A stretch of 64,000 bases of DNA from Promethearchaeota archaeon. Lineage in GTDB: Archaea; Asgardarchaeota; Lokiarchaeia; Sigyniarchaeales; SOKP01. The translations under genes and the position numbers were made by a program. The stretch lies in the NCBI GenBank assembly GCA_019057865.1, contig JAHLWP010000002.1, positions 1 to 64,000 of the forward strand, read 5' to 3'. Under the pieces are notes generated by a model. The model was given only the letters and a program-made list of their open reading frames with translations. It did not search any database and was not told where the DNA came from. Below are positions 24,881-43,493 of the stretch, piece by piece (positions within the stretch are counted from its first letter, which is position 1; every line of letters begins with the position of its first letter).

Positions 24881-25005
24881 AAATAATATAGTTTTATCAT
24901 GGTATTTTAAGATTTTTATTATAAAATGTTAATCATAGTGTAATTGGAGCTTAAAAGAACATGTTCGAAATCAAAAATATATTCAAATCTCCATACTAAA
25001 GAATT

Positions 25006-25817
25006 ATGATAGAAACAAAACAAAAAATAATCAATAGAAAAATAATAAAAATTAACGAGGAACTCTGTACTGGATGTGGTAGTTGCGTAGTCGACTGTGC
25101 AGTGATATAAAATTTGATTTATATAGCATAAAAGGCGCACTCGCAATTATCGATGGAAAAGCTAGAGTTATAAATGAAGTCTTCTGCGATGGTCTGGGTG
25201 CATGTATATCTGGTTGTCCTGAGGGCGCACTTGAAATAATAGAAAGAGAAGCTTTAGAGTTCGATGAAGAAGAAGTTGAAAAACATTTAGAAGCTATGAA
25301 AAATAATGAGCAGGTTGAAATAGAACAAGTAAAACAAATTGTTGCTGAGCATGCCCATCAATGTGGTTGTCCTTCCGCTCAAACAATGGTTTTTGATGAA
25401 CCAGAGGCGCAAACAGAAGTAAGAGGAAAAATCTCTTCAACTCTACGACAATGGCCTGTTCAAATGCATTTAATCTCTCCTATAGCGTCATATTACCATG
25501 GGGCAGATGTTGTACTTTCAGCAGATTGTGTTGCTTACTCGTATGGTGATTTTCATAGGGACTTTCTAAAGAATAAATCTATTGCTATTGCCTGTCCTAA
25601 ACTAGATCAAGGTCGAGATATATATATCGAAAAAATTAAAGCCTTGATAGATGACGCTAAAATTAACACTCTAACTGTTGCGATGATGGAGGTTCCTTGT
25701 TGTTCGGGATTATTAGCGTTGACCCAAGAAGCAGTTAAGAGAACAAATCGAAAAGTTCCAATTAAATTCATTATCATTGGCATACGAGGAGATATTTTAA
25801 AAGAAGAATGGATCTAA
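25006..25817 (+). CDS. 2x[4Fe-4S] ferredoxin-domain Fe-S protein, intron-containing (exons 25006-25102 and 25132-25817; 260 aa spliced)
   Basis: Exon 1 MIETKQKIINRKIIKINEELCTGCGSCVVDCA-G; exon 2 AA-GAL...CDGLGACISGCP, WPVQ, ACPKLD, MEVPCC. Confidence 0.85.
25103..25131 (+). other. Predicted BHB-type (tRNA-endonuclease) mRNA intron, 29 nt
   Basis: Central helix GTGC/GCAT, bulges AG|T and AA|A, inner stem ATATAAA/TTTATAT; removal gives TGT GCA GAA GGC (CAEG). Confidence 0.82.
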
Positions 25818-25832
25818 TTTCTTTTTATTTTT

Positions 25833-26486
25833 TTAGAGTTCAAACATAACCTTTTTCTTAATTATTTTTCTCAGCATAACTGATAAGGCAGATTTAGATT
25901 TCCCTAGTTTATTAGCTAATTCTTCTAAGGATATTTTTCTAGGGATCTCAAAAAAGCCTAAAGAAATTGCCTTATCTAGAGCATTAGATTCATCATAAGT
26001 TAATTTGTGTTTGTCATCCTCTAGGAGATAGGGAGATTTTCCAATTCTTAAAAGTTCAAAATCAATATTTTTTTGCTCGAAAAGCGTTAATAATTGATCA
26101 ATACTTTTTCTGCTAGATATAAGACGCCAATAGGCATAACCATCTTTAACTCTTACTGGAAAATTTATGAGAACTCCACATCTAATTAGGGCGTACAATA
26201 GATATGGGTCCTTGGTTTTAACGTTAAATTTAATTTTTTTATCTTCTTGCTCTAAAATACTAAATTCAAATACAGATGGATGATTTCTGATCACTTGAAT
26301 GATCGAATCTATGTTATAATGCATTATCTCAATTATTGAGTTTCCTATTGATTTTTCCAGATCATAAGGGAGAAAGTATGAAATCTCCATTTTCAGATCA
26401 GGAAAATTTTTAAAGAGTTCTGAAATCCATAACTTATCTGGAAATTTTATCTTGATTCTAGCCAAACTCGATTTACTTGAATCCAT
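25833..26486 (-). CDS. Bat/HTH_10-type archaeal transcription regulator
   Basis: C-terminal LT..E..AL..A...GFFEIPRKISLEELA..LG.SKS. Confidence 0.85.
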   Translation of the reverse strand: MDSSKSSLARIKIKFPDKLWISELFKNFPDLKMEISYFLPYDLEKSIGNSIIEIMHYNIDSIIQVIRNHPSVFEFSILEQEDKKIKFNVKTKDPYLLYALIRCGVLINFPVRVKDGYAYWRLISSRKSIDQLLTLFEQKNIDFELLRIGKSPYLLEDDKHKLTYDESNALDKAISLGFFEIPRKISLEELANKLGKSKSALSVMLRKIIKKKVMFEL

Positions 26487-26572
26487 CCTTAGATATTAGT
26501 GATTAAGAATTTAAAACTTTTTTTTAGATATTAAATAATATATAATTATATTATTAGCTAAATTGTATTAAA

Positions 26573-27172
26573 ATGGTTGAAAATCAGAATTTATTATTAG
26601 GGATATGTGGAAGCCCAAGAAAACAAGGAACTGAGTATGCCGTCCAATATGCTTTAAACTATGCTGCTGAAAAGTTTGGATTTGAAACAGAATATTGGAC
26701 TGTACGAAGTAAAGATATTAAGTTTTGTATTCATTGTGATTATTGCATTAGAGAGAAAAAAGGCTGTGTTCATAAGGATGATATGCAAGAACTTTATCCA
26801 AAATTAGAAATAGCAAAATTTTTACTCTTTGGAACTCCCGTGTTCCAAGGAAACTTATCTGGGCAACTAAAAACTGTAATGGATCGATGTCGTGCGTTAA
26901 TAGCAAAAAAACCAAATGTGTTTAAAGGTAAAGTTGGAGTGGCTTTAGCAGTTGGTGGAGATCGAAGTGGAGGGCAAGAAATTGCTATTAGAAGTATATT
27001 AGATTTTTATCAGCAAAACCATATTCATTCAGTATCAGGTGGAGCATTTGGAGCAAATTTGGGTGCAAGTCTATGGAGTAGGGATATGGGTAAACAAGGT
27101 ATTGAGCAAGATGAAGAAGGTTTGAGGACAATTAGAAAAGTAATAAAAAGATTAGTAGAATTTAAAGAATAA
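26573..27172 (+). CDS. Iron-sulfur flavoprotein (Isf, flavodoxin-like)
   Basis: GSPRK, CIHCDYC.....C, TPVF, GGDRSGGQE. Confidence 0.88.
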   Translation: MVENQNLLLGICGSPRKQGTEYAVQYALNYAAEKFGFETEYWTVRSKDIKFCIHCDYCIREKKGCVHKDDMQELYPKLEIAKFLLFGTPVFQGNLSGQLKTVMDRCRALIAKKPNVFKGKVGVALAVGGDRSGGQEIAIRSILDFYQQNHIHSVSGGAFGANLGASLWSRDMGKQGIEQDEEGLRTIRKVIKRLVEFKE

Positions 27173-27199
27173 GATTAAAAAAGGTGTGTTAAAATAAGT

Positions 27200-28030
27200 A
27201 TGCACGGAAAGATTTGTATGATAACTGGTGCTAATTCTGGTATTGGGAAGGCTACAGCTTTAAGTATTGCAGAAATGGGTGCAGTAGTAATTATGATATG
27301 TCGAGATAAGAATCGTGGGGAAAGTGCCCAGAAAGAAATAATAAATGAAACAGGTAACAAATCTGTGGATCTACTCATATGTGATTTAACTTCACAGGAA
27401 TCTATTTACAAACTAGTTGAAAATTTTAAAAAGAAATATCAAAAGTTGCATGTTTTAATTAATAATGCTGGAGTTGTTAAAACGAATAGAACCTTAACGA
27501 TTGATGGATTTGAAACAACTTTTGCTGTAAATTATTTAGCACCTTTTTTATTAACAAACTTACTACTGGACATACTAAAGAAAAGTGTTCCAAGTCGAAT
27601 TGTAAATGTTAGTTCTGGAATCCATAAGAATGGCAATATTAATTTTGATGATTTACAAGCAGAGAATAAGTATAGATCTTATAAAGCATATGGTCAACCG
27701 AAATTAGCATTAGTACTTTTTACTTATGAATTAAGCAAGAAAATAAAAGGTACTGGTGTTACTGTTAACGCATTACATCCAGGATTCACTCGAACTAATA
27801 TAGGTCGAGATTATTCTGTATTTATACGGGCATTTACAAAATTATCTAAGAATCCTAAAAAAGGTGCGGAAACTTCTATATATTTAGCCACATCTCCAGA
27901 AGTAGAAGGAATAACTGGTAAATATTTTATTAAAAAACAACAAACAATGTCGTCTAAAGATTCATATAACAAAGAACTTGCTAAAGAATTGTGGAAAGTT
28001 AGTCTTGAGTTAACAAAGTTAAATATTTAG
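27200..28030 (+). CDS. SDR oxidoreductase (retinol dehydrogenase-like)
   Basis: TGANSGIG, NNAG, YxxxK (YGQPK), LHPG. Confidence 0.9.
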   Translation: MHGKICMITGANSGIGKATALSIAEMGAVVIMICRDKNRGESAQKEIINETGNKSVDLLICDLTSQESIYKLVENFKKKYQKLHVLINNAGVVKTNRTLTIDGFETTFAVNYLAPFLLTNLLLDILKKSVPSRIVNVSSGIHKNGNINFDDLQAENKYRSYKAYGQPKLALVLFTYELSKKIKGTGVTVNALHPGFTRTNIGRDYSVFIRAFTKLSKNPKKGAETSIYLATSPEVEGITGKYFIKKQQTMSSKDSYNKELAKELWKVSLELTKLNI

Positions 28031-28057
28031 AAAAAAGTATAAAAAAATAAAAATAAA

Positions 28058-28354
28058 TTATTCTACTCCAAATAATTTCTTAGCCTCTTTTTCTCTGAGG
28101 CCAGAAATACCCCAGAGCTCCTTAAACCAGTATTTTCCTTTATGTATTACTACAGGGGTATTCACAATACAGCCATCAGCATCACAAAACGTTGTTAGAA
28201 AATTATCATCGTGTAATAAGTTATGTACAAATTCTTCATCATTTATATCTCGTTCAATGTATTTGACATCACGTTCATCCAGCCATTCTTTTAATTCATG
28301 ACATCTATGGCAATCAGTTTTTGTGATCAATATTGGGACTTGCATCTCAGTCAT
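28058..28354 (-). CDS. Glutaredoxin-like protein
   Basis: CHRC, cis-Pro TPV; extra CDADGC. Confidence 0.75.
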   Translation of the reverse strand: MTEMQVPILITKTDCHRCHELKEWLDERDVKYIERDINDEEFVHNLLHDDNFLTTFCDADGCIVNTPVVIHKGKYWFKELWGISGLREKEAKKLFGVE

Positions 28355-28856
28355 AATTATCTACTCTATAAAATTAATTACTATTTAGAATAATATAGCA
28401 TATCACTATAATTAACTTTTATTTTCTAAAATATAAATGAAATTATAAAGTTTAATACCTTAAGTACCTTTGATTATGAGACTAGACTTTAATCCTTTGG
28501 AATTCGGAAAAAGAATCTAACTAAAATTTTTTATTTATAAATATTGATAATATAATTTTGCAAAGAATGAGAGGAAAAAATATTTGAATATTCATTTGTA
28601 AGAATATTTCTTAATTTTTATACCTACTCCCCCTCTTTCCTCTGATTCTTTTTTTTTCCCAATCTGTTTTTTTAATTCTTTCAATTAGAAAGTATGGCAG
28701 AATTTCTTATAAATCATATACAAATGTCAAAATTTAATATTTTAAAAAATAAAAGGATAAAATCAATTTCTCTTAACTTTATTTTTCATTTTCATTATTT
28801 TTTAATAATTTATTATGATCAGATTCTTATTTTTCAAGTTGCTTTTCTTGATTAAG

Positions 28857-29324
28857 ATGGATCAAAAAACTCAAAATGAAGCCTTTAATAAATACATAAA
28901 ACAGTTATTTGAGAGTTCCAGTTGGAAAGAACGTGCAATAGCCGTTAAAAATATTGGTCAATTAAGAGAAGGTAGAGCAACAAATTTGCTTGCTAGAGCT
29001 TTAAAAATAGAAAATGATCCCGTTGTCATCAACCAAATTATTGAAGCTATGGGCGAGATTAGGGATCCGAAAGCTACTATGCTAATTATTAACTTTTTAA
29101 AGAAAGAATTAAAAGAGCCTGAAGAAAGTCAAGATAAAACTAGATTATTTATAATCATTGAGAGTTTAATGAAAATCGGAGATAAGAGAGCACTTGAGCA
29201 TCTAGGTATATTATTAGAATCTTGCCATAGTGATATTAGAAAATTAACAGAGAAAGCGTTCGAATGCATCGATCCATTATGGAAAGAAAACATTGAAAAA
29301 AATGAAGTTCTAAAAAGAATATAA
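28857..29324 (+). CDS. HEAT-repeat protein
   Basis: IIEAMGEIRDPKA and IESLMKIGDKRA repeats; start chosen at MDQK. Confidence 0.75.
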   Translation: MDQKTQNEAFNKYIKQLFESSSWKERAIAVKNIGQLREGRATNLLARALKIENDPVVINQIIEAMGEIRDPKATMLIINFLKKELKEPEESQDKTRLFIIIESLMKIGDKRALEHLGILLESCHSDIRKLTEKAFECIDPLWKENIEKNEVLKRI

Positions 29325-29362
29325 ATCTAAAAATTTTTTAAAAATGTGGAGCAGATAAAATT

Positions 29363-29665
29363 ATGTCTGAAATTATAGAAAATTTAGCGAAAACTGTAGA
29401 AGGTTCTAACAAGAATAGAGATGTTACAATTTTAACACTATCTACTTGTATGTGGTGTAAAAAATGTAAGGCATGGCTGAAAGACCGTGATGTTCAATAT
29501 AAATATGTAGATGTTGATAAAATTGATTTTGAAGATAAATCAAAAATATTAGATTATTTGAGAAAAACTTACCAATCTAGAATCTCGTATCCATTAATGA
29601 TCTGTGACGGTGAATTTGTGGTAGGTTATAATCCGAATAAATATGAAGAATTAATGAAAGCATGA
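29363..29665 (+). CDS. Glutaredoxin/NrdH-like protein
   Basis: LSTCMWCKK, SYP, VVGY. Confidence 0.85.
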   Translation: MSEIIENLAKTVEGSNKNRDVTILTLSTCMWCKKCKAWLKDRDVQYKYVDVDKIDFEDKSKILDYLRKTYQSRISYPLMICDGEFVVGYNPNKYEELMKA

Positions 29666-29675
29666 AGGGATTAAT

Positions 29676-30041
29676 ATGGAAATGGAAACTAAAGAAGGAA
29701 TGATTGAATATTGTAATAAAGTTTGTAAAACTAATAATTGGATCTTAAATAAGGATAAAAGTACTCTAAATGATTTAATTGACGGTTTGGTAGAAAATAA
29801 AAAAAGTTATGGTTATCAATCCTGTCCTTGTCGGCTCGCCTCTGGTAATCGAAACCTAGATAGAGATTTAATATGTCCATGTGATTATGCTAAATTGGAT
29901 ATTAAAGATTATGGGGCATGTTATTGTAATTTATATTTACGTCCAGATTTCTATGAAACTATTGAAAAAGAATTTGTTATTGTTCCAGAAAGAAGACCGG
30001 TTGAGAAGGAAAAAGCAGTATTAGAATATTTTAATAAGTAA
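29676..30041 (+). CDS. Ferredoxin:thioredoxin (glutaredoxin) reductase catalytic subunit
   Basis: CPC...CPC...CYC motif set. Confidence 0.88.
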   Translation: MEMETKEGMIEYCNKVCKTNNWILNKDKSTLNDLIDGLVENKKSYGYQSCPCRLASGNRNLDRDLICPCDYAKLDIKDYGACYCNLYLRPDFYETIEKEFVIVPERRPVEKEKAVLEYFNK

Positions 30042-30194
30042 AATCTTTTTTTAAAAAAAAAAATTTTAAGTCATCCCTAAATTATCAAGTATTAATTAGA
30101 CTTTTAGAACCTTTATTGAATATATAGATTCCTAAATTCAAATCAATTTTTTATAAATAAAATCCTTAAATAGTTAGGATTCTCATTTTATAAT

Positions 30195-30353
30195 ATGTCA
30201 GATAAAGAAATATCAGATGATGAATTAGAAGAAGAATTAGAAGAAGCTTTTAGGGATAATGAAGCCAAACGGGATCACTGTGGAACAGCTCTACCTTCTA
30301 GCAAAGAAGTTGGAATTCAAAGAACCAATGTAAAACTTAAGGAAGATAAATAA
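30195..30353 (+). CDS. Small acidic hypothetical protein (52 aa)
   Basis: MSDKEISDDELEEELEEAFRDNEAKRDHCGTALPSSKEVGIQRTNVKLKEDK, followed by a T-tract. Confidence 0.55.
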   Translation: MSDKEISDDELEEELEEAFRDNEAKRDHCGTALPSSKEVGIQRTNVKLKEDK

Positions 30354-30477
30354 TTCAGATTTTTTTTTCAATTACTCCTTTTTATATAATACACCTTTAA
30401 AACTATAAGAAATGAAATAAGAATTATTTTAAAGATTAAAACAAACTTTTAATAAATTATCTCAATTTTTATCTAAA

Positions 30478-31463
30478 GTGATTACTATGAAAGAACGGAT
30501 AAAGGGTAGAAAAAATTTCCCTACAGAGGAAGTAGAGCCAATTAATTATATAAATGATGATGAAATCATAGCAATGATAAAGAAGAAAGACAAATATACC
30601 TTTAAGCAAAAAGATTATTACAAATTATATAATTGTGTTCATTGTGGTGAGTGTGACACTGAAAACGAGCGTCTTCTGTTAAAGCAAAAATTCCTCCAAG
30701 ATGGAAATTCAGTTGAGGGGCTGAATGAGATGATCAAATGTTTTGAGAAATATAGGTCACCTTACCCTTCAAATAAAATGCGTATTAAGAGACCAGAAGG
30801 AATCCCTGATAAATCTGATACCCTCTTCTTTATGGGATGCCTTTCTACAATAAGGATTCCAAGATACACAGAACACTCGTTAAAATATTTATTACGACAT
30901 AAAGTTGATTTTACTATCCTAGATACTGAGATCTGCTGCGGTTGGCCTTGGTTTGCTAGTGGTTCAATGCGGGAATTTGAAATTTGTAAAGAAGAGAATA
31001 TAGAAATCTTTAAAAACTTTAAAAGTATTATTTGCCTTTGTCCAGCTTGCTATTTTCTATTTAATAAATATTATAAGCCATCAATGGATACAGAAATAGA
31101 ATTCAAATATATATCCAATTATTTGAAACCTTCAAAGACTAAGAAATCAGGTAAAGTGAGTATTCAACACTTATGTCAGCTAATGAATAGAGGAAGAGAA
31201 GGGGTTGATCAACTAGTAAACCGTATATTAGAAAAAAGTGGATACGAGGTGATTAATATGCCACATTGGTGTTGTGGGGGGGATTAGGCTATATGCATAG
31301 AACAGATATTATAGAAAAAATCGCCCGAAAAAGAATGGAAGATTATAAAGGGGGTGATTTTGCTAGCACATACTGTCCTAGTTGTTGGTGGATTTTAGCC
31401 AGATTTAGCAAACTTTGTAAGATAAAGCCAAAAGCTAAGGATTTATTCGAATTATTATTATAG
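30478..31463 (+). pseudogene. CCG-domain (HdrD/GlpC-like) Fe-S protein, frameshifted at the G7 run (31276-31282); may be a sequencing error
   Basis: One extra G joins HWCCGG to GLGYMHRT...YCPSC, matching the paralog (CCGGGVG). Confidence 0.7.
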
Positions 31464-31472
31464 GAGGGGTAT

Positions 31473-32456
31473 ATGAAGGAAGAATATAAATGCCCCTGTC
31501 GGGATGTTGACCCAAATAATTTTCTTGAAAACGAAGAAGTTGACTGGTTAATTAATAACCGGAAGAAATATAAATTCCAACAAAAAGATTACTTAAAACT
31601 TTATAATTGTATTCATTGTAATGATTGTGGCACCTCTGAGCAACGATTTATTTTAAAACAGAAATTTTTAAAGGATGGAAATAAAATTGAAGGTTTAAAT
31701 AATACCATTGAAACATTAGAAAAATATGGAACTCCTTTTCAATACAACAAAAGTCGGATTAAACACATCGAAGGTATTTCTAAAGAGAGTAATGCTCTTT
31801 TATATTTAGGTTGCTTTACAACGGTTAAAACCCCTCGTTATGGAGAAAGCATTATAAAATATCTTGTGCAGAATAATGTTAAATTTTGTATTTTAGAAGA
31901 AGAAATTTGTTGTGGTTATCCTATATTATGTACTGGAGAAATAGATACATATAATCATTTAGTGGAAAGAAATTTAGAGCTATTTAAGTCAAAAGATTTT
32001 GAAGAAATAATCACTGTTTGTCCTAGTTGTTATATGGTATTTAAGAAACATTATAGTAAGTGTAATATAAAAGTGAAGTATTTTACTGAGTATTTAAAAC
32101 CTCCAAAGAGTAAAAAATCTGGAAATTTAATAATACAACATGCTTGTCCTTTAAAAAATGGAGAAATCCCTAATATTGCAGACGATATTGAAGATCTTTA
32201 TAAAAATATTGGGTATAATGTATTAAATTCTGTACCAAGAAATTGTTGTGGAGGTGGTGTTGGCCATCAATTACGAACTGAAATATCTGAGTCAATTGCT
32301 ATAAAAAGGATGGAAGATTTTAAATTAAAATTATCTAATGAGAATAATAATTATATTACTACCTATTGCCCTGATGCGTATTGGATATTAAAAGTATTTG
32401 GGAGAAGGGCTAAGATAGATTTTAAACTTATAAATATGTGTGATTTACTCAAATAA
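31473..32456 (+). CDS. CCG-domain (HdrD/GlpC-like) Fe-S protein
   Basis: CIHCNDC, GC, CCG, CPSC, HAC, CCGGG, CPD. Confidence 0.82.
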   Translation: MKEEYKCPCRDVDPNNFLENEEVDWLINNRKKYKFQQKDYLKLYNCIHCNDCGTSEQRFILKQKFLKDGNKIEGLNNTIETLEKYGTPFQYNKSRIKHIEGISKESNALLYLGCFTTVKTPRYGESIIKYLVQNNVKFCILEEEICCGYPILCTGEIDTYNHLVERNLELFKSKDFEEIITVCPSCYMVFKKHYSKCNIKVKYFTEYLKPPKSKKSGNLIIQHACPLKNGEIPNIADDIEDLYKNIGYNVLNSVPRNCCGGGVGHQLRTEISESIAIKRMEDFKLKLSNENNNYITTYCPDAYWILKVFGRRAKIDFKLINMCDLLK

Positions 32457-32493
32457 TTAATTTTATTACAAAAACTTTTTTATTTGATTCATC

Positions 32494-33648
32494 TTGGAAC
32501 CGAATTTGATTGATATCGAAAAAGATATAGGAAAAAACTACAATAAATTCACTTTAAAAGAGTTTGGAGGAGCATTTGGAGATTGGGGTACGTTAATTCC
32601 ATTTATAATAGGATATATATCAATTGTAGGTTTAAATCCTGCTGGGATCTTTTTCACTTTAGGAATTACTAACATAATTCTGGGGATACGATTTAATTTA
32701 CCACTTCCAGTTCAACCTCAAAAGACTATTGGAACAGTAGCCATTAGCGAAAAATGGGATCCAAATATGGTAATTTCGACTGGATTCGGAACGGGAATTA
32801 TATGGTTCCTACTTGGATTTTCAAAGAAATTGACTAAAATAGTTGAAAAGGTTCCTATTATTACTGTGCGAAGCATTCAACTCGGTTTAGCATTTATTTT
32901 AGGATGGACAGGTATTCTTTTATTCAAAGACAATCTAATACTTGGTTTTTTTTCAATTGCTATAATCTTGATATTAATAAATAATAAACCAATCCCTTCA
33001 GCAATTATTCTTGCCCTTTTAGGTATATCATTAATAATTTTCACTGGCTCTGTTCAATTTTCAGAAATTAAATTTGGTTTACCGATATTTGATTTCCAAA
33101 TTCCAACTTGGAATAATCTTCTATTTGGTATGCTTTTTGCTGGAATTGCTCAATTATTTTTAACATTAACCAATGTTATGATCGCTACTGTTATACTAAT
33201 CAAGGATTTATTTCCTGAAAAAGAGGATGAGATTGATGCAAATATATTATCATTTAATATGGGAACTATGAATTTAATTAATCCTTTTTTTGGAGGAATG
33301 CCTTTATGTCATGGATCTGGGGGATTAGCGGCTCAATATGCTTTTGGAGCACGAACTGGAGGATCCATGATATTAGAGGGGTTAATGGAATTATTACTTT
33401 GCTTATTCTTGTCTGAGACTCTATTTATACTTTTTAATGAATTTCCTAAAGCTATTTTGGGAGCAATGTTAATTTATACTGCATTTTTATTAGGAAAAAT
33501 TGCTTTTAAAGAATTTAAATTGGAGGTATTTCCTATAATTTTAATCGCCGCGATATTAAGCTTTATATTTAACATAGCAATTGGCTTTATAGTAGCTTTA
33601 GTATTATTTTTCATTTTTAGGAAAAAAATTGAAAAACCTAAAAGTTAA
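32494..33648 (+). CDS. MOT1-like molybdate/sulfate transporter
   Basis: EFGGAFGDWGT..P, PLPVQP, GMPLCHGSGGLAAQYAFGARTG. Confidence 0.85.
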   Translation: MEPNLIDIEKDIGKNYNKFTLKEFGGAFGDWGTLIPFIIGYISIVGLNPAGIFFTLGITNIILGIRFNLPLPVQPQKTIGTVAISEKWDPNMVISTGFGTGIIWFLLGFSKKLTKIVEKVPIITVRSIQLGLAFILGWTGILLFKDNLILGFFSIAIILILINNKPIPSAIILALLGISLIIFTGSVQFSEIKFGLPIFDFQIPTWNNLLFGMLFAGIAQLFLTLTNVMIATVILIKDLFPEKEDEIDANILSFNMGTMNLINPFFGGMPLCHGSGGLAAQYAFGARTGGSMILEGLMELLLCLFLSETLFILFNEFPKAILGAMLIYTAFLLGKIAFKEFKLEVFPIILIAAILSFIFNIAIGFIVALVLFFIFRKKIEKPKS

Positions 33649-33807
33649 ACACTAAAATTTATCTTTTAAATTATTAATGGAATTCTATTAGGTTTTATTC
33701 GATAAATATTCAAAATTAGGTTTTTTTATAATTTAAACGAAAAATTCTTTTAAGTATGAAAGCAAATATTCATAATAATAGATTGAACTGCATTGGGTGA
33801 TTTTATA

Positions 33808-34497
33808 TTGTTTTCACAAAATGAAATGGATAATATCAAAAGAGAAATGGCTAAATTAAAAGAAAAAGTTGTACTTAAATTATTTACTGATTTTAGAACC
33901 CAAGAGGATGGTACAAAACAAAGAAAATGTATGGCTTGTGAGGGGGCATATGAGTTATTAAAAACCTTAGAAAAGTTATCTAACGGAAAATTCACAATAG
34001 ATGAATTATCTACTGAGGAGAATGAAGAAGAAGCAAAAAAATATAATATTACTAGGATTCCTGCTATATTATTTGTTGATGAAAATGGCAGAGAAATAAT
34101 TCGATATTCAGCTCACCCAACTGGAGCTGAATTTGTACCGTTTCTCAACAGTATTCAATATTTTTCAGGAGTAAGACCTTATTATGCAGATCAAATCCTT
34201 ACTCATCTGAAAAAAATATCAAAGTCAAATATGAAAATTTTTATAACTCCAACATGCCCTTATTGTCCGGCAACTGTTCCAGTTTTAACCTTGTTCGCAA
34301 TAGTTTCTAAAGGAAAGATCTCAGCGGAAGTAATTGATGTTGATTTGAATCCTGATATTGCTATGAAATATCAAGTTCAAGGTGTTCCCATGACAGTTAT
34401 AAATGAAACAGAAATTATACACGGAATGTTTTCCCCCCAGGATTTGCTAGATAAACTTACTAAAGGAGATAGGGATTTTGGAGGAATGTATGCATAA
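33808..34497 (+). CDS. Protein disulfide oxidoreductase (PDO) paralog 1
   Basis: CMAC and CPYC in two thioredoxin folds; TTG start behind GGTGA. Confidence 0.85.
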   Translation: MFSQNEMDNIKREMAKLKEKVVLKLFTDFRTQEDGTKQRKCMACEGAYELLKTLEKLSNGKFTIDELSTEENEEEAKKYNITRIPAILFVDENGREIIRYSAHPTGAEFVPFLNSIQYFSGVRPYYADQILTHLKKISKSNMKIFITPTCPYCPATVPVLTLFAIVSKGKISAEVIDVDLNPDIAMKYQVQGVPMTVINETEIIHGMFSPQDLLDKLTKGDRDFGGMYA

Positions 34498-34511
34498 GGT
34501 GATATTAGAAA

Positions 34512-35195
34512 ATGTCTCAAGATGATAAATACAGGGAAATCATTAAAAGAGAAATGGCTAAATTAAAGAAACCTGTTAAATTAAAAGTGTTTACATCCCA
34601 AAAAGTTCAGACTGATGGAACAAAAATCAGAGCATGTATGGATTGCGGAGAATTTATGGCTTTATTGAGAGTTTACGAAGAAAATTCAAACGGAATGCTA
34701 ACGATTGAAGAACTATCAATAGATGATAATCCAGAATTTGTAAAGAAGTTCGATATTACACGTGTCCCAACAATAATTTTCATAGATAATAATGGAAGAG
34801 AATTAATCAGATATTTAGCAGCACCAAAAAGAGGAGAAATTCAACCTTTCATTCAAGCTATATTTACCTTTGCAGGAGCTCCAAATTATTATGAAGCTAC
34901 TATAAAACAAAATCTCGACAGGATACCACCATCAACTATTAAGGTAATGATGACAGAGACTTGTCCTTATTGTCCTCAGGTTATTGCCATCAGTAACTCC
35001 TTCGCAATTGCATCTGAGGGGAAAATCAGAACTATAATAATTGATATAATGGCAAATCCCGACATTGGGCAGTATTATGATGCTGCGGGTGTTCCTTATA
35101 CCATTATAAATGATCAAAAGACCTTGGTGGGAATGGTTGGACCTAATGAAATATTACGAGCATTAATTGGAGGTAATATACGTGTTCAATATTGA
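34512..35195 (+). CDS. Protein disulfide oxidoreductase (PDO) paralog 2
   Basis: CMDC and CPYC; similar to the upstream paralog. Confidence 0.85.
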   Translation: MSQDDKYREIIKREMAKLKKPVKLKVFTSQKVQTDGTKIRACMDCGEFMALLRVYEENSNGMLTIEELSIDDNPEFVKKFDITRVPTIIFIDNNGRELIRYLAAPKRGEIQPFIQAIFTFAGAPNYYEATIKQNLDRIPPSTIKVMMTETCPYCPQVIAISNSFAIASEGKIRTIIIDIMANPDIGQYYDAAGVPYTIINDQKTLVGMVGPNEILRALIGGNIRVQY

Positions 35196-36126
35196 TATGG
35201 AAAGCATTGATTTTGAAAAGACCTATGATTTAATTGTTTTAGGAGGAGGTCCAGCTGCAATTGGATGTGCTATTTATGCTGCTAGATTCGCAATGGACGT
35301 ACTTGTCGTAGGTAAAACTTTTGGAGGTTTAATTGCTACAACTCATATTGTTGAGAATTATCCTGCGATTACTTCAATAAGTGGGCAAGGTTTAATGGAT
35401 ATGTTTAAGGATCATATGGACTCACTTAATATCCCTTACATATCAGATGAGATACGGAGTATTGATAAAGTCGATGATTACTTTGAACTCCATTCTTTCT
35501 TTCAAAAATTTAAGGCATATTCTATTTGCATAGCAACTGGTTCAGAAAAGAGAAAACTCGGTATTCCTGGAGAGGAAGAATTTGTTGGGCGGGGTGTATC
35601 ATATTGTGCTACATGTGATGGCCCATTTTATAAAGATAAAATTGTTTGTGTAATAGGAGGAAGTGATTCTGCTGCAAAAGAAGCCTTATTTCTAGCTCAA
35701 AATACAAAGAAAGTATATATTATTTATAGGGGAGAAGAAATTAGAGCAGAACCTATTAATAAGAAGCGAGTATATGATAATGATAAAATTGAGATAATGT
35801 ACAAGACAAATATAATAGAAATTAAAGGAGATAACTCAGTAAAATCTGTAATTTTCGATAATGGAAAAGAGTTTGAAATCGATGGTGTGTTTATTGAAAT
35901 AGGATCAATTCCTAATTCTGATTTAGCAAAACGTATTGATGTTGATTTAAACAAAAAAGGTGAAATTAAAATTAATCGCAAGTCAGAAACAAATGTTCCA
36001 GGTATTTTTGCGGCAGGAGATGTAGCTGACGCCCCATTTAAACAAGCCATTACTGGAGTCTCAGAAGGTGTTATAGCAGCATATTCTGCTTTTGATTATG
36101 TTAAAGAAATTAATATAGAATATTAA
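35182..36126 (+). CDS. trxB: Thioredoxin reductase
   Basis: GGGPA, GRGVSYCATCDG, GIFAAGD; GTG start behind GGAGGT. Confidence 0.92.
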   Translation: MFNIDMESIDFEKTYDLIVLGGGPAAIGCAIYAARFAMDVLVVGKTFGGLIATTHIVENYPAITSISGQGLMDMFKDHMDSLNIPYISDEIRSIDKVDDYFELHSFFQKFKAYSICIATGSEKRKLGIPGEEEFVGRGVSYCATCDGPFYKDKIVCVIGGSDSAAKEALFLAQNTKKVYIIYRGEEIRAEPINKKRVYDNDKIEIMYKTNIIEIKGDNSVKSVIFDNGKEFEIDGVFIEIGSIPNSDLAKRIDVDLNKKGEIKINRKSETNVPGIFAAGDVADAPFKQAITGVSEGVIAAYSAFDYVKEINIEY

Positions 36127-36136
36127 AAAATCTGTT

Positions 36137-36895
36137 TTAATATATGAAAGGGATGAGAGCCTTTCGATTCTCAGGATAATCTTCAAATGTTTCTTGGTAC
36201 CAGCGGTGATTACTTCGAGCCCTCGGTCCTAAATTGGCAGTAGTCCAGATTGCAAAGACTAATCCTGGTAATGAACATGCCATAATCGCCCAACCATACC
36301 ATTCTACTATTTCACCTAAATAGCTAGGACAACTTATAAATTGAAACATACCTCCGTGAGGGATCTTAAAATCAGTTTCACCGGGTTTACGCAGATTTCT
36401 GATTATATGATCAGAATGTACATGCATGAAAAAACCAGTAAAGAAGAAAATGATACCAATAATAAACATTGGGGTGAGAAGCCAGCTTGTTTCATAACCC
36501 CCTGAAAGAGTATTAATCCAACGTCCTTGAAGATATGCATTTGCCGAATTAAATATCATCCCAAAGAGAATTATGGTAACTGGCATTTTTCGTTTCCCTC
36601 TTATTAAACTGGGAAAAATTAATGTCCGGTAACCGTAATGCATAACCCATAACCCCGAAAATAGAAGTGTCATGAATTTAATGTGGTAATCCCCTATTAT
36701 ATAAAATATAGTATAAAGAATTAATGTTGGAATTTCCATTATTAACCAGCCTAATTTATCATTAATGCTTGGTCCCCATTTTTTAGATATATGTTGTCCA
36801 TATCCTGCCGTTATTTTTAATAATGATATAAAAACAAGGACTGCAATTATGATCATAACAATCATAAACCAATTGAAAAAAATACTATCATCCAT
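36137..36895 (-). CDS. Steroid 5-alpha reductase family protein (SRD5A/DET2-like)
   Basis: GWLIMEIP, HYGYR, HSD.I.RNLRKPG, P.YLGEIVEW.G, NL.PRA...H.WY...F..YP..RKALIPF. Confidence 0.88.
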   Translation of the reverse strand: MDDSIFFNWFMIVMIIIAVLVFISLLKITAGYGQHISKKWGPSINDKLGWLIMEIPTLILYTIFYIIGDYHIKFMTLLFSGLWVMHYGYRTLIFPSLIRGKRKMPVTIILFGMIFNSANAYLQGRWINTLSGGYETSWLLTPMFIIGIIFFFTGFFMHVHSDHIIRNLRKPGETDFKIPHGGMFQFISCPSYLGEIVEWYGWAIMACSLPGLVFAIWTTANLGPRARSNHRWYQETFEDYPENRKALIPFIY

Positions 36896-36952
36896 TTTTA
36901 TAAACCTTTTAATTGTTTAATATAAATCTTCTCTTAATAATAACAAAAAAGA

Positions 36953-38503
36953 TTAATCAACAATGTCTTTATAACAATCTTCTGGATAGAAGTTATCTTC
37001 ATCCTTATCGTGGTTTGGGTACCAAGCTTGGGCAAAGAAAGGATTTTTCCTTGCTTGTTCATCAAAATTCCATGGTGGAGGTAAGCATTCAGGGCACCAA
37101 TGACCTGCTTTGAGGACAGTATATGGTTTCATTTCAAATTCATGACCAAATGCACATTTCCATTTGAGCTTAGAGTAAATATCTCCATCCCATTGAGTTG
37201 ATAGGCATTGACCGCCTCTGAATTCTGCAGCTCCTTTTATATCTTTTAAATCCAGTTTCTCCTTTGATTCATCGTACCCATGTTTGAGTGGATGCCATAC
37301 TGGTTCAGGATGCATTTGAGGCATGTCCACACCCCAGTCTGAAATAGACTCAAATTCCTCATAAGAACCATAAAATGAAGAGATTCTCATGTCCATCTTA
37401 TTTTTATACCAATATAATGTTCCTGTCTTATCCATTGCTAATTTTTTTAATTTTTTATAAGTGATTTTTTGAATCTTTTTCTTTAACCATGGAATTTTAT
37501 TACTCAAATACGCTATGATCTTCAAGTAAAACGGTCTATTCTTTCTTAAAATTTTAAAATACTCTTCGATAGAATCATTCCAATTATTAATGTATTTATT
37601 AAGTTCCTCGCTATCATCAAAATATTGCACATGAAAGTTTCTTAAGACAAACCAACGACGCTGAGTTACATCATCAATTTTTCCTACACCATTCATTTCC
37701 ATTGCCTCATTTAAAAAGTCATAGAATGTTATCCTGCAGGAGGGTCCTCCACCCATATTATAACATTTTCTCCAGAAGTCAGAGTCTTCTGGAACATCTA
37801 AACAATTAATTAACCCTCTACCCGCATCTTTTGATGTATTATTTTCCATAAAGTTATTAATTGGTTGATGGAACATAATTGGATCCATAAGAGACATTAT
37901 ATCAGGAATCATAATAAACGTCTGACGGAGTGAAGCCCAGTACTTAAGGTTAGATTCACAAAGTGCCATTTCTCCATTAATTTTTGTGATAGCATAGAAA
38001 TCAAACACACTGGGTTTGATAGGATCTCCGATCCTACCATGATGAATAGGAGGTAAGCGATCACCTGTTGCTGCAACAGTTCCTATATATACAAATTTGA
38101 TGTGATCTTCACCTCCAGGTTGAGATTCTATCGCTTTAATGATATATTCAATGGCAGTTGTATTTACAGCTTTAGCCATCTCTGGATTACGGTCTGCTGC
38201 AGGGGGGATAAAACCCATCGGACAAAGACACCAATCAATCCCTTTACAAGCTTCTTCAACATCGTTATAATTGGTAGCATCTCCCCAAACAATTTTTAAT
38301 TCTTTTCCTTCTACTATACCTTTTCCAGGAATGGGCTTAATTCCACATTTTTTTTCATAGGGCTTAAAAATTCCTTTATTTTTCTTAGAAGGACGTTGAA
38401 GTAAGACAATATTATATTTATCCCTTTTTACCCATAAATTTTTAAATGCTTCAAAACCCATAGAACCACTTGCACCAGGTAAGAAAACTGTTTCTTTATT
38501 CAT
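36953..38503 (-). CDS. NAD-dependent epimerase/dehydratase-like protein with C-terminal Zn-ribbon
   Basis: GASGSMG, YAITK; RGGQCLS...LKWKCAFGHEF...HWCPEC. Confidence 0.78.
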   Translation of the reverse strand: MNKETVFLPGASGSMGFEAFKNLWVKRDKYNIVLLQRPSKKNKGIFKPYEKKCGIKPIPGKGIVEGKELKIVWGDATNYNDVEEACKGIDWCLCPMGFIPPAADRNPEMAKAVNTTAIEYIIKAIESQPGGEDHIKFVYIGTVAATGDRLPPIHHGRIGDPIKPSVFDFYAITKINGEMALCESNLKYWASLRQTFIMIPDIMSLMDPIMFHQPINNFMENNTSKDAGRGLINCLDVPEDSDFWRKCYNMGGGPSCRITFYDFLNEAMEMNGVGKIDDVTQRRWFVLRNFHVQYFDDSEELNKYINNWNDSIEEYFKILRKNRPFYLKIIAYLSNKIPWLKKKIQKITYKKLKKLAMDKTGTLYWYKNKMDMRISSFYGSYEEFESISDWGVDMPQMHPEPVWHPLKHGYDESKEKLDLKDIKGAAEFRGGQCLSTQWDGDIYSKLKWKCAFGHEFEMKPYTVLKAGHWCPECLPPPWNFDEQARKNPFFAQAWYPNHDKDEDNFYPEDCYKDIVD

Positions 38504-38648
38504 TTTGGAATTACTCGAGTCTTACTTCCATTCTTGGTTTTATTAATCATTCTTATAATATCTTCTTCTTAATATGATTTATATTTAATAAAAATAAGGA
38601 ATTAAATTTTATTCTCTAAAATTTAAAGGAAAGAAATAAAAAGAAAAT

Positions 38649-38735
38649 TTATTCCATATTCACATACGCGCTGTGAAATTCTGGTTCCTTGAACGGTACA
38701 TCTATCTTCAATAGTCCATTTTTATACTCTGCTTT
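38649..38735 (-). pseudogene. Hsp20 / alpha-crystallin 3' remnant
   Basis: KAEYKNGLLKIDVPFKEPEFHSAYVNME* preceded directly by an in-frame TGA. Confidence 0.65.
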
Positions 38736-38886
38736 TCAAAAATAGGATATTAAATAGAGTTCATTAAAAAATTTTTTACATATATTATTGAAACTTATGT
38801 AGAATTATTAGGGAAAGGAAATTAAAAGGTTTTATTATACAATATAAACTAAACGCATAAAAATTATTCATAATATTGTTATCATA

Positions 38887-39126
38887 ATGAGTGAAGCTGA
38901 AAGTCAAGATGTTATAGAAAGTTATAAGTTTCACCACATTGACACAAGTAAATGCCGTCAATGTAAAGAATTTTCTTGTGAAGAAGCTTGTTTTAGAGGA
39001 ATTTATAAGGTAATTAATAAAAAGACAATTCCTAAATCAACTGTTGTACAAGAGCGAGAGGATCACTGTGTTAAATGCCATATTTGTACAACAGCATGTA
39101 AATTAGGAGCTATTACAATTGATTAG
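38887..39126 (+). CDS. Ferredoxin (2x[4Fe-4S]-like)
   Basis: CRQCKEFSCEEAC and CVKCHICTTAC. Confidence 0.82.
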   Translation: MSEAESQDVIESYKFHHIDTSKCRQCKEFSCEEACFRGIYKVINKKTIPKSTVVQEREDHCVKCHICTTACKLGAITID

Positions 39127-39247
39127 ATTTTATACATCTTCTACATATATTATTTATTCGATAAACTTATAATTTATAAATTGTTATAAATTGTTAGTAA
39201 ACCTATTCTAATATAATAGTAGTAAAAAACTTTATTAAAGTGTTATT

Positions 39248-39787
39248 ATGATTAGTCAAAAGTTAAAATTAGACGATATAGATCGTCAAATTATTACACT
39301 AGTACAAGAAGATCCGAATTTAACTCATACCCAGATTGCGGAAAGAATAAATCGCAGTCAACCTACAGTTGGGATGCGTATTAAAAAACTTGAAAAATCT
39401 GGTATATTACAATTCCAACCTGGGATTAATTTTAAAAAAGTAGATCTGTTTTTAGCAACAGTAGAAATTAATTCAAGCAATCCTGAAGAAATTATGGAAA
39501 TGGCAACTTGTTGTCCTTTCATGCTTAATGCTTTCAGATTGAGTGGAGAACATAATATTTGTATTTTATTAGCAAGTTCTAAACTTGATAAGCTTGATGC
39601 TATCGTAAATTACCATTTTAGAAAAAATCCAGAAGTATCATTAGTTTCAATGGAAATCGTGACTGATATCGCTAAAGATTTCATATTACCAATCGACTTT
39701 GACTCTGAACATCATGAACCCAATGAAGAAGTCGGCTGTGGAGAGAAATGCAAATATAAACTAGCCAAGATGCAAAATAAAATCTAA
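39248..39787 (+). CDS. Lrp/AsnC family regulator
   Basis: LDDIDRQII, SQPTVGMRIKKLE, SGEHN; C-terminal CGEKC. Confidence 0.9.
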   Translation: MISQKLKLDDIDRQIITLVQEDPNLTHTQIAERINRSQPTVGMRIKKLEKSGILQFQPGINFKKVDLFLATVEINSSNPEEIMEMATCCPFMLNAFRLSGEHNICILLASSKLDKLDAIVNYHFRKNPEVSLVSMEIVTDIAKDFILPIDFDSEHHEPNEEVGCGEKCKYKLAKMQNKI

Positions 39788-39806
39788 CCAAAAAAATAAA
39801 AACTTT

Positions 39807-40376
39807 TTAATCTTCTTGTTTAAGCTCATTAAACTTAAATCGTGGTAAATCTTCTTTTAAAGAGCATCCAGGACCGCAATATCTACCATCAAATTTCTCA
39901 ATTGTGAAATCAATTGGGACTACGAAATCATGGATAGATTCTATTAAAATATTTGTTTTTACGTTGATTACATTAGGGTCTCTTCTAAAACATAAATCTA
40001 CTAATTTTTCGATTGTTTGTAAATCTGAAGCTGCAATAAAACATAACATATTAAATTCCCCCGAAATTTTAAATGCATGATTAATAAATGGGCAATTTTT
40101 TATTTTCTCAACTACATTTTCAACATCTTTAGTTGAGATATATACAATAGCAACTTTTATATCAACTTCTTTCACATTAAATCCAACTTGCTTTGTCAAA
40201 AGATGCTTTCTTTCCAATTTAATGATTCTTGCACCTACTGCAGGCTGGGATTTTTCAATCTCTTTAGCTATAGCAGAATGAGTTATATCTGGGTTTTTCT
40301 CCATCATCTCGATGATTATCTTATCGGCATCATCGATGCTTAATAATTCATTAAAACTTTTTTTCTTCATATCCAT
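39807..40376 (-). CDS. Lrp/AsnC family regulator
   Basis: IDDADKII, SQPAVGARIIKLE, SGEFN; C-terminal CGPGC. Confidence 0.9.
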   Translation of the reverse strand: MDMKKKSFNELLSIDDADKIIIEMMEKNPDITHSAIAKEIEKSQPAVGARIIKLERKHLLTKQVGFNVKEVDIKVAIVYISTKDVENVVEKIKNCPFINHAFKISGEFNMLCFIAASDLQTIEKLVDLCFRRDPNVINVKTNILIESIHDFVVPIDFTIEKFDGRYCGPGCSLKEDLPRFKFNELKQED

Positions 40377-40577
40377 TTTATTTCATAACCTCACGTTAAT
40401 TTAAACTTATTTTTAATAAATTTAAATTTTTTTAAGAGAATGATTATAGAGAATAATACTATTCAATCAAAACTTTTTGTATTATAAATTTATAATTATA
40501 AATCTAAAGTTTAAAGGTAGTATTAAATTTGAAATTAATGAATTAAAAAAAAAATAAAAAATAAAAAGGTGAATTGA

Positions 40578-42514
40578 ATGGAAGGAAAAAGAATTTCTTA
40601 TCATGATTCAGTTCAAAAAGTTTATGAGAGAATTAAAAAAGATGGAATGATTAATATTTGGGACCGTTTTGAGGCACAAGGTTTTGGTGGTGATCCTGAT
40701 AAAAGATGTCCTTTTTGTTTGAAAGGTGCAAGATGTGATTTATGTTCAAACGGTCCATGTAGAGCAGATGCTTCAATTGATAAGAGAGGTGTATGTGGTA
40801 TTACCGCTGATGGAATGGCAATGCGAATGATGCTTCTGAGAAACATATTGGGCGCATCAACTTATCACTATCACACAGAACAAACGATTAAAACATTAAG
40901 AGCAACTGCGGAAGGAAAAACACCATTTAAAATTTCAGAACCAGAAAAGCTCAAAAATTTTGCAAAAAGACTTGGTGTTGATATTTCTGGCTCAGATAAT
41001 GATATTGCTCTTCGATTATGTGATTTTGTTAAAGAGGATTTTAACAGAGCCTACGACAAACCTAGCAAAATTGTAGAGACTTTAGCACCCAAAGAAAGAC
41101 AAGAAGTATGGAAAGAATTAAATATATTTCCAGGGGGAATTTATGGGGAGATGATGCTTTCTAATAGTTCATGCTTGACAAATGTGGATGGTTATTATAC
41201 GAGCTTAGCTCTTAAGGCCATGAGACTTGGAGTTTCCATGGCTTACCAAAGTCAAATTGTAAATGAATATTGCCAAGATATCCTTTTTAATATTCCAAGA
41301 CCCCATAAAATGCGTGTAAATCTTGGAGTGCTTGATCCAGATTATGTCAATGTAATACCTAATGGACATGAACCATTTTTAGGATTTGCTATGGTTCAAG
41401 TTGCTAGAAAACCAGAATGGCAAGAAAAAGCAAAGGTTGTAGGCGCTAAAGGTCTTAGAATAATAGCCAATATTGAAACTGGACAAGAAATGATACAAAG
41501 ATGGGAGATGGATGATGTTTTTTATGGGTTCACAGGTAATTGGATAATGCAGGAAGCTATTTTAGCGAGTGGTTGTATTGATATTTTTGTATGTGATATG
41601 AACTGTTCGATGCCAATTGATCCAATCTATGCTGAGAAATATAAATTTAAATTAATCCCTGTAAGTGAAGTAGTAGCTTTTGAAGGTATTACAGATAGGT
41701 TAAATTATATTCCCCAAGAAGCAGAAAAACAAGCAGAACAACTTTTACAGATGGCAATCGACAACTTTAAAGAGCGAAGGGCAAGTGTGGAACCAGTAAC
41801 AGGATTAGATATGAGTGAAGCTATTGTTGGTTTTTCTACCGAAAGTATCCTTGATGCACTTGGTGGAACTTTAGATCCTCTATTAGATGCTATAAAGAAT
41901 GGCACAATAAGAGGAATTGCTGGATTAATTTCTTGTACAAGCTTAAGAGATAATGGTCAAGATGTCCATACTGTAAGTATTACCAAGGAATTGATTAAAA
42001 GAGATGTATTGGTGTTATCAATGGGGTGTGGTAATGGAGCTCTACAAGTAGCAGGGCTTTGTTCCCCAGAGGCAAAAGAACTCGCAGGTCCGGGTCTTAA
42101 AGCGATATGTGAGAAATTAGGCACACCCCCAGTTCTAAGTTATGGAACATGCACAGATACAGGACGTGTCGCGGATTTAATTGCCATAATTTCAAATGCT
42201 CTTGGAGGAGTCCCAATTCCTGATCTTCCAGTAGTAGCAGTAGCTCCAGAATATATTGTTGGTGGATTCGGAACCAATAAGCTTTAATGGAGCAGAAGGC
42301 TACAATTGACGCGATCTTCGCGTTAGCGTTTGGATTATATACGTACGTGAACCCTGTACCTACGGTTACTGGTGGTCCCGATCTAGTTAAACTTTTAACT
42401 GAAGATTGTAAAGATGTTACCGGTGGTATCTTACACGTCGAAACTGATACACTCCAAGCTGTAAATTCTATGTTAGAGCATATTGAAGCAAACAGGAAAA
42501 AATTAGGTATTTAA
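40578..42514 (+). CDS. cooS: Ni-Fe carbon monoxide dehydrogenase CooS, intron-containing (exons 40578-42254 and 42287-42514; 634 aa spliced)
   Basis: CDLCSNGPC, GVCG, NGHEP, GLISC, GCG, YGTCTD; PEY|MEQKA restored by removing 32 nt. Confidence 0.9.
42255..42286 (+). other. Predicted BHB-type mRNA intron, 32 nt
   Basis: Exon-exon stem GCTCCA/TGGAGC, relaxed central helix GAAT/GCTT, bulges AT|A and TA|A, inner stem TTGTTGGT/ACCAATAA. Confidence 0.85.
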
Positions 42515-42530
42515 CTTTTTTTTTTATTTT

Positions 42531-43493
42531 TTATATTATACTTCTAAAAGTATTAATAATGAAAATTAGTATAGTAAATCCGATGAGCCCAATTATAAAT
42601 TTTATTGGATCTCCTTTTTCTTTTTCTGGAATAACTTCTCTTACTATAACATATAAAATAACACCTGAAATGAAAGAAAAGAAAATAAATAAGAGTTCTA
42701 AATTATGGGGAAAGATTGAATTTAGGATAAAGCCAATAATAATTCCTATAAGTGCTGAAGTTGCTAGAATATACTTCTTAATTGGTTTTACATCATGTTC
42801 TATTGTCTCGTATATTTCTAAATCAGTAAAAATGATATGTGCCTCTGATCTCTTGGTTATAACTGTTCGAAACCATGCAAATATAAAAAAAAGAATCCCA
42901 GCTACTAATTCGAAACTTAAAAGGCCTACTAATATAAGACCTACAAGAAAATGATATATATAATCAGTAAAATATCTAAATCTGGTTAATTCCCTACTAA
43001 TACGATTTTGGATTTTTATTTTATAGTTATTAATTTCAAGTTTCATTTCCTCTTCTTGTTTATTCAAAGACGACAAAGTTTGAGAAATATCTCTTAAGGC
43101 AGCTTCATCTAATTCTTCTTGTGTTAATTCTTTTGTAAGAATATGTTCCATATTACGTTCTACTGCTTCTAAGGTTTTCTCTTTCTTAAGCAATTTCCGC
43201 ATTTTTTTCTGGGTTTTTGATTCAACTTTTTGTAAAATTAATTTTTCAGATATATGAATAAAAGTAAATCCAATTAAAACAAAAAGATACTCAAAAAGTT
43301 CTGAATGAAATGGAAATTCTGGCAAACTTTTAGCAATTTCAGGCAGGACAACAAGAAAAAAGTAAGAAACAGATATTCCTGCTATAAGGGAAGCGTGTAA
43401 TTTATTTATTTTATGTTCATAATAATCAGAAATAAAAAAGGATACTCCAAAAACTAAAGAAAGAATAATAACCATTATTAGACTGTCTGTCAT
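42531..43493 (-). CDS. ZIP-like membrane protein with cytoplasmic coiled-coil insert
   Basis: AGISVSYFFLVVLPE, SGVILYVIVREVIPE; charged central insert. Confidence 0.65.
   Translation of the reverse strand: MTDSLIMVIILSLVFGVSFFISDYYEHKINKLHASLIAGISVSYFFLVVLPEIAKSLPEFPFHSELFEYLFVLIGFTFIHISEKLILQKVESKTQKKMRKLLKKEKTLEAVERNMEHILTKELTQEELDEAALRDISQTLSSLNKQEEEMKLEINNYKIKIQNRISRELTRFRYFTDYIYHFLVGLILVGLLSFELVAGILFFIFAWFRTVITKRSEAHIIFTDLEIYETIEHDVKPIKKYILATSALIGIIIGFILNSIFPHNLELLFIFFSFISGVILYVIVREVIPEKEKGDPIKFIIGLIGFTILIFIINTFRSII

Follow-up and report, generated by a model that had tools for sequence, protein, structure and literature searches.

Predicted tRNA-type mini-introns in two Fe-S protein genes of a Lokiarchaeia genome and their probable lateral spread

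The window analysed here comprises the first 64,000 nucleotides (nt) of contig JAHLWP010000002.1 from a Promethearchaeota archaeon of the Lokiarchaeia (GCA_019057865.1; genome of 4.26 Mb, 29% GC; in our numbering the source genome is G000, and its contig C41 begins with the window). It carries two genes for iron-sulfur (Fe-S) proteins, one of the Fer4 type and one of the cooS family, whose reading frames are each broken by a short insert within a conserved motif (Table 1). Both inserts fold into a bulge-helix-bulge (BHB), and from their structure and the enzymes encoded in the genome we predict that they are, very probably, genuine tRNA-type BHB introns that are spliced out of the messenger.

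With its insert in place, the frame of the Fe-S (Fer4) gene that opens at ATG 25006 reaches a stop after 34 codons, and removal of the insert at the BHB cut sites gives a 260-amino-acid (aa) open reading frame (ORF) with the junction ...CVVDCA-EGAL..., which is exactly the sequence of intronless orthologs. The central helix pairs 25097-25100 with 25126-25129 (GUGC/GCAU) at all four positions, the predicted cuts fall after 25102 and 25131 within the bulges AG/U and AA/A (slashes mark the cuts), and the intron stem of 7 base pairs (bp; 25105-25111 with 25118-25124) is preceded by a G.A mismatch that forms the first intron pair. Against the fully paired central helix stands the ordinary stability of this fold (z -0.5).

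In the cooS-family gene, the unspliced frame stops at codon 570, leaving ORFs of 569 and 75 aa, and excision yields a single 634-aa CooS-family ORF with the junction APEY-MEQKA; here too the BHB-predicted cuts give exactly the sequence of intronless orthologs. The two exons cover consecutive stretches of the Protein Data Bank (PDB) entry 7B7Q, residues 4-554 and then 555-629. An exon stem of 6 bp (42243-42248 with 42288-42293), a central helix (42249-42252 with 42281-42284) that is paired at three of four positions here and at all four in the two other carriers, G016 and G066, and an intron stem of 8 bp (42256-42263 with 42273-42280) make up a very stable fold (z -3.84). CooS-V is the nearest match of the product (7B7Q, E=5e-177; next best 1e-99). 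In the product's motif IETGQE a Glu replaces one C-cluster Cys, at the position of Glu295, so that the protein probably belongs with the hybrid-cluster proteins and not with the enzymes that oxidise CO. This is the only cooS-type gene found in the genome besides cdhA, and its closest relatives are labelled Promethearchaeota.

Table 1. Exons and predicted introns of the two interrupted Fe-S protein genes, with positions in the window
Feature	Position	Strand	Evidence
Fe-S (Fer4) gene, exon 1	25006..25102	+	CxxCxxCxxxC up to the last Cys-Ala; Pfam Fer4; aligns with intronless orthologs
Fe-S gene, predicted BHB mini-intron, 29 nt	25103..25131	+	BHB geometry; same-site 29-nt insert in 8 other genomes
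Fe-S gene, exon 2	25132..25817	+	78-82% protein identity to intronless orthologs
cooS-family gene, exon 1	40578..42254	+	CooS-V-like; TIGR01702 positions 1-546; best PDB match 7B7Q
cooS gene, predicted relaxed BHB mini-intron, 32 nt	42255..42286	+	BHB geometry; same-site 32-nt inserts in G016 and G066
cooS-family gene, exon 2	42287..42514	+	MEQKA..., conserved Lys motif; TIGR01702 positions 547-621; 7B7Q residues 555-629

An earlier, sequence-only reading of the window had described two BHB-like inserts in Fe-S genes, both of 3n+2 length, both giving a premature stop if unspliced and both at highly conserved motifs, and had expected standard annotation to present such genes as split. All of this stands, the public gene calls listing the unspliced products of 569, 75 and 244 aa; an Rfam search of 24500-43000 returned no match. 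The structures are retained in relatives: across eight aligned genomes 99% of the cells of the Fe-S gene motif are paired, with two compensatory pairs, and in three genomes (the source, G016 and G066) the cooS intron stem is 100% paired with four double-sided changes, evidence that comes from few, related sequences. The same reading had raised the question of which type of tRNA-splicing endonuclease (EndA) the host has and whether it would accept relaxed motifs. The genome encodes two EndA paralogs (C71:81.5 kb and C69:38.3 kb) together with RtcB. The alpha paralog has Aeropyrum EndA alpha as its best match (E=3e-35) and holds both the Tyr/His/Lys triad and the K-P-R loop, a loop that confers broad EndA specificity, relaxed motifs included (PMC3241643), and the other paralog is without the His and looks like the structural subunit. 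Judged from these residues, the host EndA should be able to cut relaxed motifs, and the ligase RtcB is present. On each point at which sequence can test an archaeal BHB intron, namely geometry, restoration of the product, retention of the structure and presence of the machinery, both inserts conform.

The wider occurrence of such inserts was assessed by homology, because ab initio BHB scans with frame filters were unspecific, true and mirror geometry giving similar counts except among the three most stable hits. Two reference samples, 1.6 Mb of genome G023 and 0.8 Mb of genome G006, supplied coding sequences that were aligned to the source genome without use of the motif, and the frame-breaking inserts found between conserved flanks were all 28-44 nt long and all fitted a BHB. 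With further cases from a junction-peptide search, from rps12 and from a few motif-found inserts, the source genome holds at least 28 inserts in 20 genes, a lower bound from the part of the genome that was covered, in which 22 are defined by homolog alignment and the remainder are less firm, the exact cut in FwdA being uncertain. The hosts include LeuRS (four inserts), acetyl-CoA synthetase (five), EF-2, aIF2-gamma and the single-copy rps12, besides a Rab-like GTPase, two acyl-CoA dehydrogenases, a vWA protein, CdhD, a FwdA-like amidohydrolase, an NAD-dependent epimerase and a second Fe-S protein gene in which two BHB inserts each lie within a Cys motif (C14:43122-43151 and 43380-43411). The sequence-only reading had suggested a scan for further frameshifted or split genes with BHB folds, which has thus turned up many, and it had considered that such introns might be spreading through this genome, which agrees with their number and with the scattered carriers described below.

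At the cut register the central helix is paired at three or more of its four positions in all 22 homology-defined inserts, as against 1-5 of the 22 at shifted registers and 17% at random, where the register was partly picked among near-equal alignments and is unique in six cases. Insert lengths modulo 3 (0/1/2) are distributed 12/6/10, so that 10 of the 28 are 3n+2, and four inserts preserve the frame and contain no stop. The different introns are mutually unrelated, the best pair being 62% similar, which argues against a single copying element. Conserved sites appear to be preferred, since for each of the 19 census inserts 13 or more of the 16 flanking residues are identical, a level that 46% of eligible windows reach, although detection of the inserts itself favours conserved flanks. 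The reverse comparison gave one such insert in the two reference samples, which marks the source genome as unusually intron-rich. That one insert lies in G023 (minus strand, census position 335853-335882), is 30 nt long and contains a stop, and the ortholog in the source genome (C52) is intronless. Where a protein region is poorly conserved, insertions that keep the frame were left out of the intron count; BHB geometry is missing in most of them. Among the multiply interrupted genes, LeuRS (C49:5000-7940, +) has BHB inserts of 28, 34, 30 and 28 nt, and a second 5' LeuRS fragment lies on C73; the acetyl-CoA synthetase gene runs from C82:1-1520 (-) into C39:23957-24630 (-), and three of its five inserts are in frame without a stop. 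Within the window itself, a CCG-domain gene (30478-31463) is split by a small frameshift at HWCCGG into ORFs of 269 and 65 aa, and comparison with relatives revealed no insert of 18-120 nt there.

Genes for LAGLIDADG homing endonucleases occur beside introns far more often than expected: a LAGLIDADG ORF is found within 1 kb of 3 of the 20 intron genes, against a background of 0.25% (p=2e-5). Free-standing LAGLIDADG ORFs are found 200-500 nt away from three introns of the source genome other than those of the window, and a fourth case is provided by the acetyl-CoA synthetase gene, which a 989-aa LAGLIDADG ORF adjoins across the contig overlap. Among these neighbouring LAGLIDADG genes, those at C75:14.9-16.9 kb and C48:43.1-46.1 kb are intact. 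In one relative, G113 (C43), a multiply frameshifted two-motif LAGLIDADG relic, identified by its motif and by similarity to the LAGLIDADG ORFs of the source genome, ends about 80 nt upstream of the intron-bearing Fe-S gene. One LAGLIDADG query gave zero candidates in the two intron-poor references and the largest number in the source genome, which is anecdotal. When other LAGLIDADG ORFs were in turn inspected for adjacent introns, one plausible new case emerged (C23, post hoc) and none at about five. As to the neighbours of these ORFs, a ubiquitin-E2-like gene (C18:57050-57300, -) with a broken N-terminus (a short start, MSNQRR, then a stop) adjoins a 244-aa LAGLIDADG ORF, and a further micro-intron is possible there; in G024 (C7:929026-932400) an aIF5B-like gene has a 484-aa LAGLIDADG ORF directly upstream. 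Several of the LAGLIDADG ORFs on C4, C39, C48, C69 and C75 reach an unusual length (600-1120 aa) and are extended at the N-terminus by acidic or Zn-finger-like sequence, and the copies on C39 and C48 have their N-terminus and upstream gene in common.

The distribution among relatives is patchy. The Fe-S gene insert was found in nine carriers (the source and eight others, in three genera) among 113 family genomes with a match, always at 29 nt, and the cooS insert in three (the source, G016 and G066) among 73, all of 32 nt with differing sequences; it is absent from all other cooS loci read, those of bacteria and methanogens included. Each of the two introns is thus missing from more than 90% of the family genomes with a match, and the two occur together in the source genome only, the other genomes checked having just one. 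The distal part of the Fe-S gene gives a tree that demands eight changes for eight carriers, at least six of them forced by supported branches and each carrier placed beside intronless alleles, and the cooS tree demands three changes for three carriers in three supported clades. Around the Fe-S insertion, 45 nt show an identity of 0.89 between carriers versus 0.70 between carriers and non-carriers, a gap seen nowhere else in the gene. Moreover, G098 (with intron) and G005 (without) are identical from about 35 nt downstream of the site and differ in exon 1 and upstream, the Fe-S alleles of G088 and G012 differ mainly around the insertion site, and the source allele is a mosaic in which a G098-like patch bears the intron. 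Such local exon identity, sharp borders and mosaicism form the pattern of gene conversion.

We therefore favour, with a probability of about 0.72, the explanation that these are routinely spliced, near-neutral mobile mini-introns that spread laterally among Lokiarchaeia with the help of LAGLIDADG enzymes. Both inserts of the window would be ORF-less BHB introns of the pre-mRNA. As structure and enzymes suggest, the housekeeping (alpha-beta)2 tRNA-splicing endonuclease would cut behind the second base of each 3-nt bulge, and the exons would be joined by RtcB so that full-length proteins are made. The introns would be passengers of an intron-rich genome, and the comparative evidence points to their moving sideways between Lokiarchaeia via gene conversion. 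For the driver itself we lean towards homing-endonuclease-driven conversion, with a good deal less assurance than for the splicing: a free-standing LAGLIDADG enzyme encoded beside the gene would cut the intron-free allele at its conserved motif, the break would be repaired by copying in the intron along with some of the adjoining exon, the intron would destroy the cut site, and the nuclease gene would later decay. Several observations weigh against this account. No endonuclease gene lies beside either intron of the window, nor in the limited flanks available for the cooS carriers G016 and G066, so that the nuclease has to be taken as decayed or lost; an endonuclease gene was seen in just one of the nine Fe-S gene carriers, and that relic fragment (G113) has no Pfam match at 0.01. 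Co-conversion at cooS is no stronger than suggestive, and selection for the exon helix may account for part of the exon letters that are shared close to the intron.

A route through RNA, in which EndA and RtcB reverse-splice the intron and reverse transcription or recombination follows, or else inheritance with mostly loss, would dispense with a homing endonuclease altogether. We regard this as unlikely, yet several facts speak for it: nuclease genes are lacking in the vicinity of most of the 28 introns, several genes carry four or five introns, the lack of sequence relationship between introns fits a local origin, and a preprint on Asgard tRNA introns found no link to mobile elements (10.64898/2026.10.13.758758). 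It fares badly with the excess of LAGLIDADG genes near introns and the relic in G113, with the sharp recombination border beside the Fe-S intron and with the preference for conserved sites, which is typical of nuclease-targeted elements. It is hardly credible, on the other hand, that the inserts are not spliced at all and that we are dealing with split proteins, ribosomal bypass, pseudogenes or assembly errors. The source cooS exon 2 does begin at an ATG overlapping the stop (TAATG), as a translational restart would have it, but the Met in question is conserved in intronless orthologs, the overlap is not kept in G016 and G066, and a restart of this kind is missing from both the Fe-S gene and rps12. 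Inspection of the sequences revealed no matched take-off and landing codons for ribosomal hopping. Synonymous change is well above non-synonymous change in the exons, and the excess in cooS exon 2 equals that in exon 1, which argues against a pseudogene, and independent assemblies hold diverged inserts at the same site with the BHB kept, which excludes assembly error. We have rejected these candidates on those grounds.

The sequence-only reading had also proposed that splicing, gated by O2, metal or redox state, may act as a switch for Fe-S and anaerobic genes in the manner of XBP1/HAC1. Both inserts of the window do frameshift Fe-S genes with early stops, a third Fe-S gene (that on C14) has two introns inside its Cys motifs, the CdhD and FwdA genes of anaerobic carbon metabolism each have an intron, and the cooS and Fe-S genes adjoin in many relatives. 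The two inserts lie about 17 kb apart, in what the same reading had called one redox region; the genes do not form one operon, those in between having both orientations, and by simple arithmetic 20 intron genes in 4.26 Mb would give about 1.5 pairs within 17 kb by chance. Genome-wide comparison is unfavourable to a switch, which we consider very unlikely. The enrichment of Fe-S genes that the same reading had proposed to look for did not appear: Fe-S-motif genes make up 3 of the 20 intron genes (p=0.09), where the background is 5.4% of covered genes and 8.5% of covered sequence, and the figures fall to 1 of 18 genes without the discovery pair (p=0.63) and stand at 4 of 28 by intron (p=0.21), with p from 0.09 to 0.66 overall. 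Similar introns sit in rps12, aIF2-gamma, EF-2 and LeuRS, so that the gene classes are mixed, there is no bias towards 3n+2 lengths, and both introns are absent from most orthologs, polyphyletic and combined in the source genome alone. A search for a dedicated sensor nuclease with the IRE1 RNase domain (PF06479) found none, and its control likewise matched nowhere. Introns so scattered, unenriched and rarely co-occurring are unlike a conserved pathway-specific switch, but they may still have a regulatory side effect.

Should this interpretation be correct, its consequences would reach beyond the two genes. At least 28 introns in one genome would make mRNA splicing a routine process in part of the Asgard archaea, and gene callers that split or truncate key genes there would distort metabolic and phylogenomic reconstructions. 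How ORF-less archaeal introns arrive is a question left open by the 2026 preprint on Asgard tRNA introns (10.64898/2026.10.13.758758), and the association with free-standing nucleases supplies an answer that can be tested. We put it at slightly better than even that some Lokiarchaeia carry dozens of protein-spliced mRNA mini-introns, in essential genes as well, through invasion of conserved motifs aided by free-standing LAGLIDADG enzymes, so that much of the proteome depends on EndA and RtcB. If so, EndA activity could throttle expression globally at the post-transcriptional level in the closest prokaryotic relatives of eukaryotes.

In XBP1/HAC1 splicing, IRE1 acts together with RtcB or Trl1, and for XBP1 a dedicated stress-activated nuclease serves one conserved target. 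The predicted process in Lokiarchaeia shares with it the non-spliceosomal removal of a short frameshifting intron and ligation by RtcB, but it would employ a housekeeping tRNA enzyme on many unrelated targets, and the logic of such a switch finds neither conservation of the introns across orthologs nor a single target class here. In the literature that we searched, which is incomplete, archaeal BHB introns of coding sequences appeared only in cbf5, plus one case in a 5' untranslated region (UTR), and no paper on mRNA introns of Asgard archaea was found. The UTR case is HVO_1309 of Haloferax volcanii, an mRNA substrate of EndA whose expression drops on EndA depletion (PMC7714728); it resembles the present genes in the predicted use of mRNA as EndA substrate and differs from them in having its intron in the 5' UTR and in the conservation of that intron among haloarchaea. 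The cbf5 intron of Sulfolobales and Desulfurococcales was gained once, in one gene, and inherited with losses (Watanabe 2002; Yokobori 2009, PMC2738675; reviewed in PMC10485636). Like it, the inserts described here are short, ORF-less, located in coding sequence and of relaxed BHB type in a host with (alpha-beta)2 EndA; unlike it, they number at least 28 in 20 genes and are patchy and polyphyletic, with splicing that is predicted. The inferred mobility resembles that of the 16S rRNA hairpin intron Pog.S1205 of Thermoproteales, which is co-converted by the LAGLIDADG enzyme of Pog.S1213 (PMC4496867). Both systems consist of BHB hairpins shorter than 50 nt at highly conserved sites, with a LAGLIDADG nuclease encoded elsewhere as mover, for the present introns a candidate one, but there the host is rRNA and the nuclease lies in a neighbouring intron, whereas the present introns sit in mRNAs and free-standing genes encode the candidate nucleases. 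In this last respect the arrangement resembles collaborative homing at cyanophage psbA, where a free-standing endonuclease accompanies a group I intron that has no ORF (PMC3984707). Patchy distribution and co-conversion of flanks are common to both, being clear at the Fe-S gene and weaker at cooS, and a free-standing nuclease gene by an ORF-less intron is seen at four other genes of the source genome and as a relic at the Fe-S gene of G113, but at neither locus of the window nor at cooS in G016 and G066; yet the phage introns are self-splicing ribozymes, and those of Lokiarchaeia would be introns of about 30 nt, spliced by proteins and carried on an archaeal chromosome.

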